5,372 bases of DNA from a virus (lineage: Duplodnaviria; Heunggongvirae; Uroviricota; Caudoviricetes). Positions 1 to 4,946 of this stretch are shown one piece after another. The notes beneath the pieces were generated by a model. It saw nothing but the letters and a program-made list of their open reading frames with translations, was not told where the DNA came from and did not search any database. The translations under genes and the position numbers were made by a program. Each line of letters starts with the position of its first letter. The first letter of the stretch is position 1. The stretch is taken from IMG/VR virus record IMGVR_UViG_2778261418_000009, positions 1 to 5,372 of that record, one strand, 5' to 3'.

Positions 1-268
1 CATTGGCAAAGGCTGCACGCAACCCGGCCTTAATTTCCTCTACCTCATCAGCACCTGGCGATGAATCTGACAGTGCGCGATGGAATGCGTAAGCCATGTC
101 GTCGTTGATTTCTACAGGCACACTATCAGCCTTGCGGCGCTCCTGTAGCTCGCGCAGAGCCGCTACAACATAATGGCTATTGTGCTGGTCAGCCCACAGA
201 ATGAGCCGAATCAACGTTGCATTTGAAACGTATTCGTCTGTTAGTTTGCTATTGGTAAAAGTCGTCAT
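1..268 (-). CDS. Hypothetical phage protein, 5' portion only (start at 268, continues past the left edge)
   Basis: ATG at 266..268 (- strand) overlaps the HNH stop as ATGA. Upstream SD-like GAAGGGG. Frame stays open to position 1 (about 89 codons, MTTFTNSKLTDEYVSNATLIRLILWADQHNSHYVVAALRELQERRKA...). No motif recognised. Not in the ORF track because no stop lies inside the window. Confidence 0.45.
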   Translation of the reverse strand, partial: MTTFTNSKLTDEYVSNATLIRLILWADQHNSHYVVAALRELQERRKADSVPVEINDDMAYAFHRALSDSSPGADEVEEIKAGLRAAFAN

Positions 269-630
269 GCCGTAGCCCCTTCTTGATATTTTTCAAACCA
301 GAACACAACCGGGTCAGATTTCATTTCAACCAACCCCATACGAACCAGCGCTTTGCCTTTCCCGGACGCAAGGAATTCACGACGACCATCACTGATAATT
401 CGCCGATAATCTTCCAGGCTACTGCAATGCTTATGCAGATTGCATGGGTGGCATGCCGGAACCATGTTGGATATATCGTCACGTTCCTGGTGAAGCATAT
501 TTCCATCAAAACGAATGACCGGTTTTACATGGTCTGCATGCCACTTTTCGCCAAGTTCGCAGCCGCAATAAGCGCAGCGACCACCAAACTTCATGCGCAG
601 TTCTGCACGTTGTTTTTTCGTCAGTGCCAT
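265..630 (-). CDS. HNH endonuclease (121 aa)
   Basis: Within track ORF 265..720, but the start is placed at the internal ATG 628..630 because it is preceded by SD AAGGAAGG at about 5 nt spacing and sits 1 nt after the upstream gene's stop. Translation contains a classical HNH metal-finger layout: CAYCG ... HADHVKP ... N ... ACHPCNLHK. Confidence 0.8.
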   Translation of the reverse strand: MALTKKQRAELRMKFGGRCAYCGCELGEKWHADHVKPVIRFDGNMLHQERDDISNMVPACHPCNLHKHCSSLEDYRRIISDGRREFLASGKGKALVRMGLVEMKSDPVVFWFEKYQEGATA

Positions 631-631
631 A

Positions 632-850
632 TCAGCCTTCCTTATATGGATTAATTTTATTGTGTAGTGCGTTGAACGACGCCCATACCACGTCGTTATA
701 CAATTCAATAACTGGCTCAATTATTTTCCCGATTGCCCAGATAAAAATTAGCGGGGATATCGGTATCATCAACACGATAAACAGAATGAGAAACATGATT
801 TCTATTGTTCTGCTTCTTCGCGGGTATTCTTTTCTGAATAATGTAGGCAC
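632..850 (-). CDS. Small membrane protein (72 aa, one predicted transmembrane helix)
   Basis: Track ORF 632..850. GTG start preceded by SD AAAGGAGAG. Basic N-terminus (RKEYPRRSR) followed by a hydrophobic stretch IMFLILFIVLMIPISPLIFIWAIG. Stop TGA at 632..634 lies 1 nt before the HNH ATG. Confidence 0.45.
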   Translation of the reverse strand: MPTLFRKEYPRRSRTIEIMFLILFIVLMIPISPLIFIWAIGKIIEPVIELYNDVVWASFNALHNKINPYKEG

Positions 851-851
851 A

Positions 852-1040
852 TCACTCTCCTTTAGTGCGCAAGTGGCTTTTCCAGCGGTTTTGCGCCGCG
901 CTGGGCTTTTTGCAACAGCTGTGACCCATCACCCCGCAACACCCCGTCAACCTCACTCGTCTGTTACTAATCCTCAACCATCGCCAGACCCCAACACCGT
1001 TTCTGCGAGCTAACAGAATCTTTGCTTTACGGTTTTTCAT
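852..1040 (-). CDS. Small highly basic Cys-rich protein (62 aa)
   Basis: Track ORF 852..1040. ATG at 1038..1040 preceded by SD AGGAGAG. By my count 17 Lys/Arg and 1 acidic residue. Motif CC-x6-CC (GCCGVMGHSCCKK). Its stop is embedded in the RBS of the next gene. Comparable in size and charge to small nin-region proteins of lambdoid phages (analogy only). Confidence 0.4.
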   Translation of the reverse strand: MKNRKAKILLARRNGVGVWRWLRISNRRVRLTGCCGVMGHSCCKKPSAAQNRWKSHLRTKGE

Positions 1041-1207
1041 CGTTTTGCTCTCCTGCGTTTCTTTGCTGCACGTCGCGCCGCTGCAATACCGGTATGGCGC
1101 TTTGGTGCCGGGATAATATTGTCAGCCATCATGACATGTGGAATAACTGTTAATGACGACGCCCCAAACCGCACCAGATACGGCAATAAACAATTTTCCA
1201 TCCGCAT
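1037..1207 (-). CDS. Small protein with a poly-basic C-terminal tail (56 aa); below the track length cutoff
   Basis: Hand translation of the - strand: ATG at 1205..1207 preceded by GAGGTGA; product MRMENCLLPYLVRFGASSLTVIPHVMMADNIIPAPKRHTGIAAARRAAKKRRRAKR; stop TGA at 1037..1039 overlaps the ATG of the 62-aa gene (ATGA). Could still be spurious. Confidence 0.3.
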   Translation of the reverse strand: MRMENCLLPYLVRFGASSLTVIPHVMMADNIIPAPKRHTGIAAARRAAKKRRRAKR

Positions 1208-1283
1208 TTCTCACCTCAATTGATCTGAATATCAGTAATTGTTTGTTGCAACCATTCTTTAGTTAGTTCTGCCATTTTTATTA

Positions 1284-1335
1284 CCGCCCTTTCGGGCGGC
1301 CTCCGGATGATTTGAGGGTGCAGGAATCCCTCCGG
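1284..1335 (-). other. Structured intergenic element: GC hairpin with a GAAA tetraloop on the transcribed (-) strand, plus a second weaker hairpin
   Basis: 1284..1299 is ccgccc-tttc-gggcgg on +, which is CCGCCC-GAAA-GGGCGG on the - strand (6-bp GC stem, GNRA-type loop). 1314..1332 is gaggg-N9-ccctc. ctccgg occurs twice (1301..1306, 1330..1335). No U-tract follows on either strand. Lies in the roughly 200-bp gap between two - strand gene blocks. Confidence 0.3.
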
Positions 1336-2422: not shown

Positions 2423-3493
2423 TTACCCCCTGAAGCCCGGTGGAATTTCGGTATCCGGTTCAGAAATATGATTCACACAACGCTGGTTGTTCGTGCCGCT
2501 TACCGGGAGCAACCAGGGGTTCTCAAAATTCCGGTCCGGTCCAAAAAACGTCGTCGCTCGCTGAACAAATTCCGTTCCCGTTTTCCCGGTAGCCGCCAGG
2601 TATCTTGCGTAACGCCTCACGCCATCCAGCATGGCCTCTGGTGGCACCCCCTCGCGTAATCTGGCCTTCCAGGCACTGAAAGCGGATTTCTTCGGATTTG
2701 CCCCGGCACGCAACGGGTACTCCCGCCAGACCTGTTCGAACACATCCGGATAATCCACTCGTCTCACAGGCTGCCCGGTGTTTTCCGGGACTACCCGATC
2801 GGCTTCCCGCTGAATGGAGGAATCGGCTTCAGGCTGCTGCAGTTGGTGTGATTGCTCCGGCCTTGCGGTCATCACCTGCTGCACAGCGCCCGAATCGGCT
2901 TTCAGCGCATACGCTGAATCGGCTTCCGGTGTCGTGCCTGCTGGCTGACCAGGATTGACGGTCTGAACATCCCCTGCCTGGTTCGTGGCGTTTTTTACGC
3001 CATGGACCATAGTGTTTTGATCTTCTTGATCTGTATCTTTATCTGTATCTTTATCTGTCGTGACTCGTCGTGACATGTGCGTGACATTTCGTGACGCGCC
3101 GTGACAATCTCCATTTTGTTCCCGCTTTCTTTCCCTCTCTCGCTGCGCCCTCTTGCGCTCTGCCGGAGATTTTGCGGTTTGCGAAATATTGCCGTTGTCC
3201 TCTTTCAGCACCTGGCGTTTTTCCCATCCAGTGATTAAATCACCATCAAGTACCCGCCCCTGCATCGTCTGCAAAATTGAATCAATTACCTCTTCTGTCA
3301 CGTCGAGCGCACTTGCCAAATCTTCTGTCGTGACATCAATGTGACCTCGCGTGACATTTCGTGACGCGCTCACCAATAGGTGGATATACACTGCCATCAC
3401 TGTTGCAATTGGCTGCCCTGACACCCTGGCAATTGTTCGCCACTTAGGGTCATTTGGCATGTCATGCCATAATCTGAGCCAGGCGTTAGCCAT
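2423..3493 (-). CDS. Phage replication initiation protein (O-like; replisome-organizer-type N-terminus, conserved phage C-terminal domain), carrying internal iteron arrays
   Basis: Track ORF 2423..3499. Start preferred at ATG 3491..3493 (MANAWLRLWHDMPNDPKW...), preceded by AGAGGTGA; a GTG two codons upstream is the alternative. The N-terminal W-x-R-L-x3-M-x-N-D-P-K-W pattern resembles phage replisome-organizer N-domains (from memory, not searched). Charged low-complexity linker (ERKRAQRERERKREQ, TDKDTDKDTD). Direct repeats typical of an ori lie inside the gene. Confidence 0.7.
   Translation of the reverse strand: MANAWLRLWHDMPNDPKWRTIARVSGQPIATVMAVYIHLLVSASRNVTRGHIDVTTEDLASALDVTEEVIDSILQTMQGRVLDGDLITGWEKRQVLKEDNGNISQTAKSPAERKRAQRERERKREQNGDCHGASRNVTHMSRRVTTDKDTDKDTDQEDQNTMVHGVKNATNQAGDVQTVNPGQPAGTTPEADSAYALKADSGAVQQVMTARPEQSHQLQQPEADSSIQREADRVVPENTGQPVRRVDYPDVFEQVWREYPLRAGANPKKSAFSAWKARLREGVPPEAMLDGVRRYARYLAATGKTGTEFVQRATTFFGPDRNFENPWLLPVSGTNNQRCVNHISEPDTEIPPGFRG
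3029..3058. repeat. Five tandem copies of a 6-bp unit ATCTKT (A/T-rich), adjacent to iteron array 1
   Basis: atctgt atcttt atctgt atcttt atctgt read directly from the sequence. Encodes TDKDTDKDTD on the - strand. Two GATC sites lie just upstream (3019..3022, 3028..3031). Confidence 0.8.
3059..3105. repeat. Iteron-like array 1: five direct CGTGAC repeats at 10-11 bp phasing (candidate origin of replication)
   Basis: CGTGAC at 3059, 3069, 3080, 3090 and 3100 (start positions), read directly. One-helical-turn phasing inside the initiator gene matches the lambda arrangement of ori within O (established knowledge for lambda; inference here). Confidence 0.6.
3329..3365. repeat. Iteron-like array 2: four (C/T)GTGAC repeats at 10-11 bp phasing, including a 21-bp exact copy of part of array 1
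   Basis: Repeats start at 3329, 3340, 3350 and 3360. gcgtgacatttcgtgacgcgc is identical at 3079..3099 and 3349..3369. An inverted copy GTCACG lies at 3297..3302. Confidence 0.55.
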
Positions 3494-3564: not shown

Positions 3565-3990
3565 TCAATGCACAGCCACAATATTTCCTGCAGGGCCACC
3601 ACGATTCATCTGGTTGAAACCAGCGATCGCCACTGCGACAAAATCATCAGCGTCTCTCACCAGTCGTTCCCGCGTCTCCACTAGTTCCCGAAAATAGGCT
3701 GAGCTATGGCTGCGCATTCGGGCCACCAGCAGAGGCGGCATTGCTTTTTCGATAGCTGGTAACAACGCCTGAATTTTTTTAACCGCATCAGGGGTGTCTT
3801 TCTCCACCCAGCGGAAAATTTTCTGAGTATTGCGAGCCAGGGCTTCCGGATGGCTGTCGTCATACAGTTCCGGGAACGTCATTCCCAGCTCGAAATACGC
3901 TTTGGTAATTTTCGCAGCCGGTACTTTTTCGCCGTCCGGATGCGCCCAGGCATTCATCGCCATGCGGATATGTTCATGCTTGATTTTCAT
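3565..3990 (-). CDS. ydaT: YdaT-like protein (functional analogue of CII in Rac/CP-933P-type prophages), 141 aa
   Basis: Within track ORF 3565..4062. Start placed at the internal ATG 3988..3990 (MKIKHEHIRMAMNAW...) because of the strong SD AAGGGGGG about 5 nt upstream. It overlaps the end of the cro-like gene by 17 nt. Assignment rests on position (directly after cro) and on my recollection of the YdaT N-terminus; not verified by search. Confidence 0.6.
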   Translation of the reverse strand: MKIKHEHIRMAMNAWAHPDGEKVPAAKITKAYFELGMTFPELYDDSHPEALARNTQKIFRWVEKDTPDAVKKIQALLPAIEKAMPPLLVARMRSHSSAYFRELVETRERLVRDADDFVAVAIAGFNQMNRGGPAGNIVAVH

Positions 3991-4216
3991 GAATCCCCCC
4001 TTGGTTAGAAGGCGGATTATGATCAGAACCGGGAATGACAACCGTCGGTATGTGTAACTCATATTTGAGCGCCCCGGCAGTGACTGCCTGAATTAGCAAC
4101 GCCCATTTCCACGGAACCTCTTCCCCCCACATGCTGACTGTGGTTTTTGACGTTCCTAGAGCTGCGGCTGTTTTAACAACTCCGCCAAAATAGCCTAATA
4201 CTTCTGATTTTTTCAT
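3974..4216 (-). CDS. cro: Cro/YdaS-like HTH transcriptional regulator (80 aa)
   Basis: Within track ORF 3974..4264. Start placed at ATG 4214..4216 (MKKSEVLGYFGGVVKTAAALGTSKTTVSMWG...) with SD GGAG at about 7 nt; an ATG four codons upstream (4226..4228) has no SD. HTH signature GGVVKTAAALGTSKTTVSMW. Divergent from the cI-like gene across the operator region. Confidence 0.7.
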   Translation of the reverse strand: MKKSEVLGYFGGVVKTAAALGTSKTTVSMWGEEVPWKWALLIQAVTAGALKYELHIPTVVIPGSDHNPPSNQGGIHENQA

Positions 4217-4307
4217 GAGTCGCTCCATAAAACTGAACGCCAAAAGTTTAATAATCAAAACCAAAGAAAGTCAAGAAACAAAACCATCTGTGTTTTAAAA
4301 TCAAAAC
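4217..4307. promoter_or_regulatory. Divergent immunity control region (PR-like and PRM-like promoters with operator half-sites)
   Basis: A/T-rich 91-bp spacer between the divergent cro and cI starts. Repeated GTTTT/AAAAC half-sites form imperfect 16-18 bp palindromes (for example tGTTTTaaaatcAAAACa at 4291..4308 and GTTTaataatcAAAAC at 4246..4261), and aatcaaaac occurs twice (4253..4261, 4299..4307). - strand -35 TTGACT (complement of 4269..4274) with a weak -10 near 4248..4253. + strand -10 TAAAAT at 4295..4300, only 7 nt before the cI ATG, with no SD, which suggests a leaderless cI mRNA as in lambda PRM. Confidence 0.5.
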
Positions 4308-4946
4308 ATGAGCAAGCAAACAATATCTGAACGCATAACCCAACGTATGCATGCGCTAAACCTGAAAGGCAAAGACCTTGTCAATGCCACTGGCGCATCA
4401 AAAGGCTCCGTAAGTCAATGGATGAACGGTGGAGGAGCGCCGTCCTCGCGTTACATAAGTTCACTGGCAAAAATATTGAAAGTAAACGAAAATTGGCTTC
4501 TTAATGGAGGAGAGTTAAATACAGGTGATTCGCTTGATCTATCTTTACCGCCGATAAAAACGGTTCCGCTACTATCACTTCAGCAGGCAGCAAGCTGGAG
4601 TGATTATATGAAAAATTCCTCAATAACCTCTTGTGTGCAGCTTGTCGGAGAAATCCCGGCCAATACCTTTGCAGTTGTTCTAGAGAGTGACAGTATGTCA
4701 ACATCTGGTGGGGGAGTTTCCATCCCAAATGGTTCAACAGTTTTTGTTGATCCCGATCGAACCGTACAACCAGGAAATATTGTCCTTGCCTTACCCAAAG
4801 GGACCACAACACCTGTCATTCGTAAACTGGAGATAGAAGGGCCGGATATTCTTTTAGTCCCCACGAATCCTCGCTACCCTTCAATTATGCTGGATGATCT
4901 ATCTTGCATATTGGGCGTATGCTTTAAAATTCAACAAGATATTTAA
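4308..4946 (+). CDS. cI: cI-like prophage repressor (N-terminal HTH_XRE, C-terminal S24 LexA-type peptidase), 212 aa
   Basis: Track ORF 4308..4946. HTH segment LKGKDLVNATGASKGSVSQWMNG. C-terminal domain has the Ser nucleophile context ESDSMS and the downstream Lys in VIRKLEIEG, as in LexA and lambda cI. No SD before the ATG. Confidence 0.88.
   Translation: MSKQTISERITQRMHALNLKGKDLVNATGASKGSVSQWMNGGGAPSSRYISSLAKILKVNENWLLNGGELNTGDSLDLSLPPIKTVPLLSLQQAASWSDYMKNSSITSCVQLVGEIPANTFAVVLESDSMSTSGGGVSIPNGSTVFVDPDRTVQPGNIVLALPKGTTTPVIRKLEIEGPDILLVPTNPRYPSIMLDDLSCILGVCFKIQQDI

Follow-up and report, generated by a model that had tools for sequence, protein, structure and literature searches.

Do four small, tightly abutting genes in the early region of a lambdoid prophage make up one functional unit, or are they separate genes that merely share a way of being joined? 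The question is raised by a viral DNA of 5,372 nucleotides (the window, meaning the whole stretch that was analysed), in which a sequence-only reading had described a translationally coupled cassette of two small basic proteins, a small membrane protein and an HNH endonuclease, suggested to be made in fixed ratio and possibly acting as an accessory or exclusion module. The four genes are likely separate, interchangeable accessory genes rather than a fixed four-gene machine. The stretch that carries them is likely part of the hypervariable accessory section in the early-right operon of an Escherichia lambdoid prophage that is Rac/933W-like. Profile matches identified a cI-like repressor, cro/YdaT, an O-like replication gene and DUF977 in the window, while DUF968, RusA, Q and a methyltransferase are found downstream of the cassette region in relatives, where the accessory section lies between the replication genes and RusA/Q. 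The likeness to a lambdoid nin region, drawn earlier from the letters alone, is thereby borne out for the setting. An Rfam scan of the entire window at E<=1 gave no match. The features discussed below are, in the order of transcription:

1276..1304, minus strand: SD-hairpin element, consisting of GGAGG (1304-1300), stem CCGCCC (1299-1294), GAAA loop (1293-1290) and stem GGGCGG (1289-1284), with a spacer of 8 nt (1283-1276) before the ATG at 1275
1216..1275, minus strand: leader mini-ORF of 19 codons, reading MAELTKEWLQQTITDIQIN and a stop; the TGA (1218-1216) lies within the p56 SD
1037-1207, minus strand: p56 (56 aa), ATG at 1207, SD GAGGTGA at 1217-1211
852-1040, minus strand: p62 (62 aa), ATG at 1040 overlapping the p56 stop as ATGA (1040-1037), SD AGGAGAG at 1054-1048
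632-850, minus strand: DUF4014 gene (72 aa), GTG at 850, 1 base past the p62 TGA (854-852), SD AAAGGAG at 863-857
265-630, minus strand: HNH gene (121 aa), ATG at 630, 1 base past the DUF4014 TGA (634-632), SD AAGGAAGG at 643-636
1..268, minus strand: 5' part of the next gene, ATG at 268 overlapping the HNH stop as ATGA (268-265)

The layout proposed earlier, four minus-strand ORFs each with an SD and joined by ATGA, TGA-T-GTG and TGA-T-ATG junctions, holds in all its coordinates, as does the ATGA coupling of the gene that follows HNH at 268-265. The stop/start arrangement of a translationally coupled operon is thus present from p56 to the next gene (ATGA, TGA-T-GTG, TGA-T-ATG, ATGA). Further close junctions are found nearby, including a GTGA overlap between DUF977 and p84, an overlap of 8 nt between p84 and p103, and the leader ORF, which ends 8 nt ahead of p56. 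Close junctions are a property of the entire operon and not peculiar to the four cassette genes. Each junction is a short, conserved linker in three parts: the last codons of the upstream gene, in which the SD is encoded, the overlapping stop and start, and the opening 5-8 codons of the gene that follows. The same linker is shared by joins between many unrelated genes and serves as the ribosome-binding site, and linkers coincide with mosaic joints, where modules vary from phage to phage. Where HNH is absent, for instance, the junction takes the form DUF4014-TGA-T-ATGACNACTTTTACC.

In the annotated frame, pN/pS was 0.31 for p56, 0.35 for p62, 0.26 for DUF4014 and 0.07 for HNH. The remaining sense frames gave values of roughly 0.6-4, and this substitution pattern shows purifying selection on all four ORFs. 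The lack of synonymous bias that would have spoken against the small genes was not observed. Two plus-strand ORFs (283-654 and 624-1013) were considered as genes and rejected, as their antisense pN/pS was >1 or a mere third-position echo, and their open frame is not maintained in relatives.

Among the cassette genes, only p56 and p62 behave as a unit. A p62-family gene adjoins p56 in 74/77 p56-anchored loci, making the two a near-obligate pair that is common in Stx-phage and related prophages, where genome annotation sometimes misses the genes. The p56 protein is basic (pI 11.9), and its C-terminal tail (..TGIAAARRAAKKRRRAKR) is rich in arginine and conserved, with a pN/pS of 0.23 compared with 0.31 for the whole gene; the protein matches phrog_13831 (E 2.4e-25), while searches of Pfam and NCBIfam gave no family. 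The p62 protein is basic (pI 11.8) and Trp-rich, and matches phrog_1380 over its full length (E 8e-32). In the family alignment its ends are conserved (MKNRKAKxL.. and ..KPSAAQNRWKNH) and its middle is variable; the conserved ends differ by synonymous changes only, codons 1-10 having a pN of 0.000 and a pS of 0.22. Only 32 p62 protein clusters were found, the named ones being from Escherichia, plus one from Salmonella. The AF2 model of p62 was of low confidence (pLDDT 66) and too poor for a fold search. The earlier description of two small basic proteins therefore stands as to charge and the p56 tail, whereas the CC-x6-CC motif of p62 does not qualify as a zinc site, as its cysteines are not conserved across the family. 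Judging by their charge, p56 and p62 are probably nucleic-acid binders. Binding of the p56 tail to the nearby GNRA hairpin was also considered and found no support, because the hairpin rarely co-occurs locally (10/80 p56-anchored and 9/80 p62-anchored loci).

The third protein belongs to DUF4014 over its full length (PF13198, 88.7 bits, cut-off 23.2, residues 2-71 of 72) and also matches phrog_1832. The single TM helix read from the sequence is confirmed by a Kyte-Doolittle 19-residue maximum of 2.87, and the architecture is that of a single-pass protein: the N-terminus is basic, the TM segment spans about residues 18-41, and ~30 aa follow it as a C-terminal tail. The product would be a single-pass inner-membrane protein acting separately from its neighbours. 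Literature searches on DUF4014 and 933W L0066-L0068 gave nothing relevant.

The assignment of the 121-aa ORF as an HNH nuclease was upheld by a match to PF01844 at residues 19-68 (28.2 bits, cut-off 21.4) and to phrog_2118 (E 9e-57). Across 42 homologues no substitution is seen at C19/C22/C60/C63, D33-H34, N55 or N64, and the protein carries the catalytic and zinc residues of the beta-beta-alpha-Me group with a four-Cys zinc site. An AF2 model (pLDDT 90.8) displays strands then a helix, and a helical C-terminal extension. A fold search of the PDB returned generic HNH domains only as best matches, the similarity being limited to a core of ~60 residues (Foldseek E 0.005-0.1, TM about 0.4-0.5), while a sequence search of the PDB gave only a marginal match, 4H9D. 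The conserved helical C-terminal half (residues 72-119) found no structural match. Two closer identities were rejected: lambda NinG / Rap (PF05766, 18.2 bits, cut-off 25.4), with which the HNH core alone aligns, and a Septu PtuB or retron-associated effector, for which PADLOC gave a core match only (E 3e-8, profile positions 20-88 of 227). The score for TIGR02646 was 21.8, with a cut-off of 52.15.

If the four genes formed a block, they should travel together in related prophages, as had been suggested. However, of 5426 complete E. coli genomes, only 8 contain >=80% of the cassette, whereas parts of it are present in 1393. The full set in this order is seen in few E. coli genomes and on a single plasmid, and most relatives display the same modules in other combinations. 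Viral contigs anchored on HNH, p62 or DUF4014 likewise show many gene combinations. The anchored samples comprise the best 80 matches of each scan, and their fractions are rough because they hold many near-identical prophages: p62 is followed by DUF4014 in 4/77 loci, with at least 10 other genes in that place, and DUF4014 by HNH in 20/75 DUF4014-anchored loci, no fewer than 6 other gene families taking the place of HNH behind an identical TGA-N-ATG junction. For DUF4014, upstream and downstream partners are found in most combinations. The HNH gene is itself followed through an ATGA overlap by an MTTFT-type gene in 71/79 loci. This next gene, which starts MTTFTNSKL.. and is 199 aa long in relatives, belongs to a variable family of MTTFT... 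genes and matches phrog_12449 (E 8.6e-31); its 199-aa homologue in two loci had no Pfam match.

Among the alternatives, a selfish role of the nuclease survives best. HNH may be a free-standing homing-type endonuclease that inserts at gene-boundary linkers and may promote the shuffling of modules; this is possible, though doubtful, and is compatible, as a sub-hypothesis, with the independent assortment of the genes. It is consistent with the presence/absence polymorphism of HNH right at the boundary of DUF4014 (or p62) with the MTTFT-type gene, with an intact active site under strong purifying selection, and with the patchy and taxonomically very wide spread of the family in prophage early regions. 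In addition, HNH has diverged by 2.3% at the nucleotide level compared with 5.8% for the adjacent DUF4014, while the flanks are unrelated. However, stronger purifying selection also explains the lower divergence of HNH, every module in the region shows a like presence/absence, and the protein has no recognisable separate DNA-binding domain.

An alternative that we regard as unlikely is that DUF4014 and HNH form a two-gene module of Escherichia lambdoid prophages, with the other genes as bystanders. From the HNH side the pairing is frequent, DUF4014 being directly upstream in about 60/80 HNH-anchored loci, and unrelated sequence bounds the pair on both sides. The linkage is above chance within E. 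coli prophages: between a DUF4014 allele and its nearest counterpart, the downstream gene class agrees at a frequency of 0.53, compared with 0.26 at random. Yet, recent common descent of near-identical prophages could explain this linkage, and from the DUF4014 side HNH is the neighbour in only the 20/75 loci given above. Moreover, HNH directly follows p62 or other genes in several loci. Across 80 species of the HNH family, DUF4014 is upstream in 2/80, in E. coli and Shigella only, leaving 78/80 without it; one more locus carries a TM-like ORF that is doubtful and unrelated to DUF4014. In a census of motif and abutment, the HNH neighbours vary everywhere across species, yet they usually abut HNH.

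It could further be speculated that the linkers and the portable SD-hairpin-start constitute a dedicated exchange system for lambdoid accessory cassettes, in which HNH nicks or cuts the linkers and so drives its own spread and the shuffling of neighbours between pR (nin) and pL (exo-xis), with p56-p62 separately being a new arginine-rich RNA-/DNA-binding regulator pair; we consider this very unlikely.

Highly improbable, too, is the original proposal in its full form, namely that the four genes are one fixed-ratio cassette in which DUF4014 controls or localises HNH and the small basic proteins assist, the whole serving as an accessory or superinfection-exclusion module. The close stop/start junctions with an SD at every gene, the rare occurrences of the full order and a Shigella record that annotates a fused DUF4014-HNH protein are in line with it. 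However, junctions of this kind also connect each of the genes with many unrelated partners, leaving a fixed-ratio unit unsupported, and of the E. coli genomes only the 8 noted above have the block. Outside Escherichia/Shigella the HNH family is found without a membrane-peptide neighbour. Nor did the PADLOC search for defence systems yield anything beyond generic core-level HNH similarity; no PtuA-type ATPase gene lies near HNH, and no partner ATPase or sensor domain was found.

Finally, although HK97 gp74-type packaging HNH proteins are similar in size to this 121-aa protein and the fold is a generic HNH one, a role as a terminase-associated packaging accessory of that type is scarcely credible, because HNH sits between replication genes and Q, away from terminase. 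In Klebsiella, Comamonas and Salmonella prophages it lies in early regions and never adjoins terminase. None of the contexts read places it next to terminase or portal genes; its region is delimited either by replication genes and Q or by recombination genes and integrase, and lysis and structural genes are several kb away. In relatives, HNH is several kb upstream of Q. The gene that is cut off at 1..268, which had been put forward as potentially terminase-related, is not a terminase gene; it matches phrog_12449 and gave no Pfam match.

The preferred explanation, in contrast to these alternatives, is that independently assorting modules, i.e., the leader mini-ORF, p56-p62, DUF4014, HNH and the MTTFT... 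gene, are placed head to tail in an operon that would be transcribed from pR. The GC hairpin would bring the SD next to the leader AUG, where ribosomes would load, and these may then re-initiate from ORF to ORF or load at each SD. The products would act separately. HNH is predicted from its conserved residues to be an active, autonomous zinc-finger nuclease that works on DNA early in lytic growth, whether by nicking, by structure-specific cleavage or in a selfish homing-type mode, and would be neither a packaging factor nor the effector of a membrane-gated exclusion.

Ahead of the leader, the hairpin forms in both the MFE and centroid folds, and the SD-hairpin element is conserved in 120/251 loci, preceding at least 5 unrelated genes. 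At pattern-anchored sites, the layout is GGAGG, an 18-nt hairpin, 6-9 nt and the start, the start codon lying 6-9 nt past the stem in 125/125 sites, a sample in which the SD was fixed by the search pattern. In a BLAST-based sample, the SD was present or one base off in all 25 distinct variants. With its over-long SD-AUG spacing bridged by a hairpin, the element has the predicted layout of a split ribosome-binding site. Covariation was uninformative because the stem is almost invariant, and the element had no match in Rfam. An intrinsic terminator was rejected, since the hairpin has no U run and a terminator scan found none there. The leader mini-ORF is also found in five further loci and in four pattern-anchored loci, and longer genes sharing its start are seen in other loci; it is probably the leftover 5' end of a longer MAELTKE.. 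gene.

As the genes are likely separate and interchangeable, the finding is largely ordinary. Its main lesson is a cautionary one: that stops and starts overlap in a phage operon is not enough to mark a functional unit, and here each gene meets many different partners through the same junctions. A modest interest is left in p56-p62, a pair of tiny basic proteins whose substitution pattern points clearly to translation, in the stand-alone HNH nucleases of early regions, whose family is widespread, and in the hairpin-bridged ribosome-binding element, which is conserved and seems to act as a portable gene start.

Compared with known systems, the region resembles the nin and exo-xis/ea regions of lambdoid phages (lambda, P22, 933W L0065-L0069) in its small, non-essential early genes with overlapping stops and starts and in its mosaic joints at gene boundaries. 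The four proteins, however, have no match among the named nin or exo-xis proteins of lambda. In 933W, the Ea22-like L0069 and the DUF551 protein L0065 flank homologues of p56, p62 and DUF4014, and ea22 of 933W is split by an insertion at the L0065-L0069 spot (PMC8614690). The same modules occur in the exo-xis (pL) region of phage Dewey and 933W, whereas here they are on the pR side, the nin equivalent, of a Rac-like prophage. The HNH protein shares the beta-beta-alpha-Me fold, the CxxC...CxxC zinc site and the DH/N/N residues with the Geobacter Gme HNH nicking endonuclease (PDB 4H9D) and the HNH domains of Cas9, CBASS Cap5 and Septu/retron PtuB, yet it differs from them in its unmatched helical C-terminal half and in having no partner ATPase or sensor domain. 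Lastly, the SD-hairpin element resembles the hairpin-bridged split ribosome-binding sites of T4 genes 38 and 25 (PMC3014915), in that its SD lies 24-27 nt from the start and a stable hairpin would cut the effective distance to 6-9 nt. Unlike those sites, the element is found in lambdoid prophages, is portable and serves several unrelated genes, with a predicted effect on ribosome loading.

The 5372-nt window comes from a lambdoid, Rac/933W-like prophage and covers its immunity, replication and early-accessory region. Divergent from a repressor gene, the minus strand carries in order a cro-like gene, a YdaT-family gene, an O-like/DnaT-like replication gene, DUF977, two small ORFs (p84 and p103), a 197-nt gap, the four-gene cassette and the start of a further gene:

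4308-4946, plus strand: LexA/cI-type repressor gene
3565-4216, minus strand: cro-like (YdaS-type) gene, then YdaT-family gene (PF06254), the Rac prophage arrangement; the two frames overlapping by ~17 nt
minus strand: O-like/DnaT-like replication gene, 358 aa, with CGTGAC repeat clusters inside
1304-1273, minus strand: SD-hairpin-start element (GGAGG, CCGCCC-GAAA-GGGCGG, 6-9 nt, start codon), in the 197-nt gap 5' of p56
1275-1216, minus strand: 19-codon leader ORF, MAELTKEWLQQTITDIQIN and stop, unannotated, between hairpin element and p56
1037-1207, minus strand: p56 (56 aa), Shine-Dalgarno sequence (SD) GAGGTGA
852-1040, minus strand: p62 (62 aa), start in an ATGA overlap with p56
632-850, minus strand: DUF4014, GTG start one base past the p62 TGA
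265-630, minus strand: HNH (121 aa), start one base past the DUF4014 TGA
minus strand: next gene (start only), in an ATGA overlap with HNH
628-643, 848-863, 1037-1054 and 1205-1217: linker junctions

Among annotated E. coli relatives, the closest have the operon running on downstream into ORF6N or hokD, DUF968, RusA, antiterminator Q or DUF1133, and a DNA methyltransferase. This places the cassette in the nin-equivalent region, in these relatives several kb upstream of Q and far from terminase, and it is probably transcribed within the early-right operon. Within the O-like gene, CGTGAC(A) repeats form two clusters ~260 nt apart (3024-3059, 3058-3105 and 3327-3368, together with 12-nt tandem repeats), and the three 12-nt tandem repeats encode DKDTDKDTD on the minus strand. 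The repeats look like phage-origin iterons inside the initiator gene, in lambda fashion.

All features from which the sequence-only reading assembled a translationally coupled cassette were found at the coordinates it gave, including a purine-rich SD 5-9 nt 5' of each start, encoded by the final codons of the preceding gene. Over related loci from viral contigs, several hundred in all, pN/pS in the annotated frames was 0.31 for p56, 0.35 for p62, 0.26 for DUF4014 and 0.07 for HNH, against about 0.6-4 in other sense frames. This synonymous bias, the lack of which that reading had named as counting against the small ORFs, identifies them as real genes. At its conserved ends, p62 shows synonymous variation only (codons 1-10, pN 0.000 vs pS 0.22; codons 45-62, pN/pS 0.24); in the arginine-rich p56 tail, pN/pS is 0.23. 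Both proteins are extremely basic (pI about 12 each) and match PHROG families of unknown function (phrog_13831 and phrog_1380, respectively), while Pfam and NCBIfam searches returned no family for either. RefSeq annotation often omits them: the p62 gene at L001 6096-6281, and both genes in E. coli M19 (L165, about 3860-4357), have no RefSeq (PGAP) annotation though under purifying selection. The p62 family comprises several paralogous subtypes, at times in tandem; those of 58, 62 and 63 aa (L058, L055, L069, L114-L120) have in common a MKNRKAK start, a SNRR/SNHK core and a QNRWKNHLRTKGE end, and nothing else. The CC-x6-CC motif pointed out earlier is present in the window's p62 but is not conserved in the family, and the predicted p62 structure is unreliable. 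DUF4014 is a 72-aa single-pass membrane protein, and a literature search found no paper that mentions it.

The four genes are not one unit. Portions of the 943-nt cassette turn up in 1393 of 5426 complete E. coli genomes, and at least 80% of it in only 8. Its genes have interchangeable partners among related loci. Among the best hits of each scan, many of them near-identical prophages so that fractions are rough, HNH follows DUF4014 in 20/75 loci; other followers are an 87-aa protein (24), MTTxT-type or DUF551-type genes (16), a 933W L0066-type gene (12) and others, always across the same TGA-N-ATG junction. Upstream, DUF4014 is preceded by the hairpin element or a gene ending in KGE, and most combinations with downstream partners occur. 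Around the DUF4014-HNH pair, flanking sequences are unrelated from locus to locus. Across a one-genome-per-species collection (80 loci), DUF4014 stands upstream of HNH only in E. coli and Shigella, and a small TM-like ORF does so in three, two being DUF4014 and the third doubtful. The ORF upstream of HNH ends within 40 nt in 28/37 cases; a neighbour usually abuts HNH whatever its identity, and tight packing is therefore generic. A single database record, Shigella sonnei protein P0002 (194 aa; HNH part 100% identical to the window), is called as a DUF4014-HNH fusion, probably through a 1-nt indel or sequencing error because the two genes lie in different frames.

The sole real pair is p56-p62. 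A p62-family gene abuts p56 in 74/77 p56-anchored best hits and is no more than 400 nt away in the remaining three, and the ATGA junction is present in 58/79 p62-anchored ones. Downstream of p62, DUF4014 comes next in 4/77 and HNH directly next in 3/77, and at least 10 other genes occupy the slot. The ORFs, SDs, junctions and coding status of the earlier description thus stand, but its interpretation as a single unit holds only for p56-p62.

Tight junctions also occur outside the four genes (DUF977-p84, GTGA overlap; p84-p103, 8-nt overlap). The junctions are short conserved linkers: unrelated upstream genes end in KGE, YKE[NSG] or IRIKGGE, all encoding an SD, and unrelated downstream genes open with ATGGCAACTTTGACAAAAAAAGAAC, ATGGCACTGACGAAAAAACAACG, ATGACCACTATTACC or ATGACTGAATTAACCAAAGAACA. 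First codons (5-8) common to unrelated genes include MATLTKKE, MALTKKQ, MTTITRE and MTELTKEQ (window junctions; loci L166-L245). These 20-30-nt linkers coincide with mosaic joints, that is, points of module exchange. In Stx phage 933W (L164 2153-4619), the pL-side exo-xis region carries homologues of p56, p62 and DUF4014 between Ea22-like L0069 and the DUF551 protein L0065, and the modules therefore move between both early operons. A modelling study described 933W ea22 as split by gene insertion at that place (PMC8614690). Phage Dewey (L163 2432-3557) also carries the modules in its exo-xis region, between an Ea22-like and a DUF551 gene. Modular mosaicism is classic for lambdoid accessory regions (the Susskind-Botstein module concept). 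Shared linkers and modules in two regions are such mosaicism rather than evidence for a dedicated machine; the cassette is unremarkable as a mosaic stretch of lambdoid accessory genes, which Pfam, PHROGs and RefSeq already cover. The four genes are most likely independent accessory modules, p56-p62 forming one, and their head-to-tail coupling probably reflects compaction and shared linkers doubling as ribosome-binding sites and recombination joints.

HNH most likely works on DNA autonomously. Its zinc site (CxxC...CxxC) and DH/N/N catalytic residues are intact and invariant over 42 homologues, and its structure model is confident (pLDDT 90.8). Matches are to HNH cores only, both in structure (Cas9 HNH, Cap5, Gme nicking enzyme; T4 endo VII weakly) and in sequence (4H9D marginally, PtuB). 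The family is stand-alone (about 115-145 aa) and occurs in Enterobacterales, Acinetobacter, Comamonas, Pseudomonas and Paracoccus, with members as far away as Bacteroidota. Its prophage neighbours are early genes in Klebsiella (DnaB/NinE/NinG/Q), Comamonas (RdgC/integrase) and Salmonella (RdgC/Ea22/Dam/DinI); neither there nor in the relatives was the gene ever adjacent to terminase or packaging genes, a neighbourhood raised earlier as favouring a packaging role. It may be a useful recombination or anti-competitor enzyme. It may also be a selfish homing-type gene, which its presence/absence polymorphism and a divergence below that of DUF4014 (2.3% vs 5.8% nt) fit, although stronger purifying selection and the region's general behaviour explain both equally well. 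As NinG, its profile score fell below the cut-off.

The conserved hairpin element (GC stem of 6-7 bp, GAAA loop) was found in 120/251 fetched loci. Many lambdoid prophages have it, ahead of no fewer than five unrelated genes, and a start codon lies 6-9 nt past the hairpin in all 125 independently pattern-anchored sites. Linkage to p56/p62 was looked for and not found, Rfam gave no match, and a terminator scan gave none there. In the window, the element, as a putative split ribosome-binding site, would drive the leader ORF, which resembles the 5' end of a longer MAELTKE gene cut short. The p56 SD contains the stop codon of this ORF, and the coupled chain therefore really begins at the leader ORF. 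In T4 genes 38 and 25, split ribosome-binding sites use a hairpin to draw a distant SD beside the AUG (PMC3014915). The arrangement found here matches, and the hairpin element looks like a split ribosome-binding site of this T4 type that also marks a mosaic joint.
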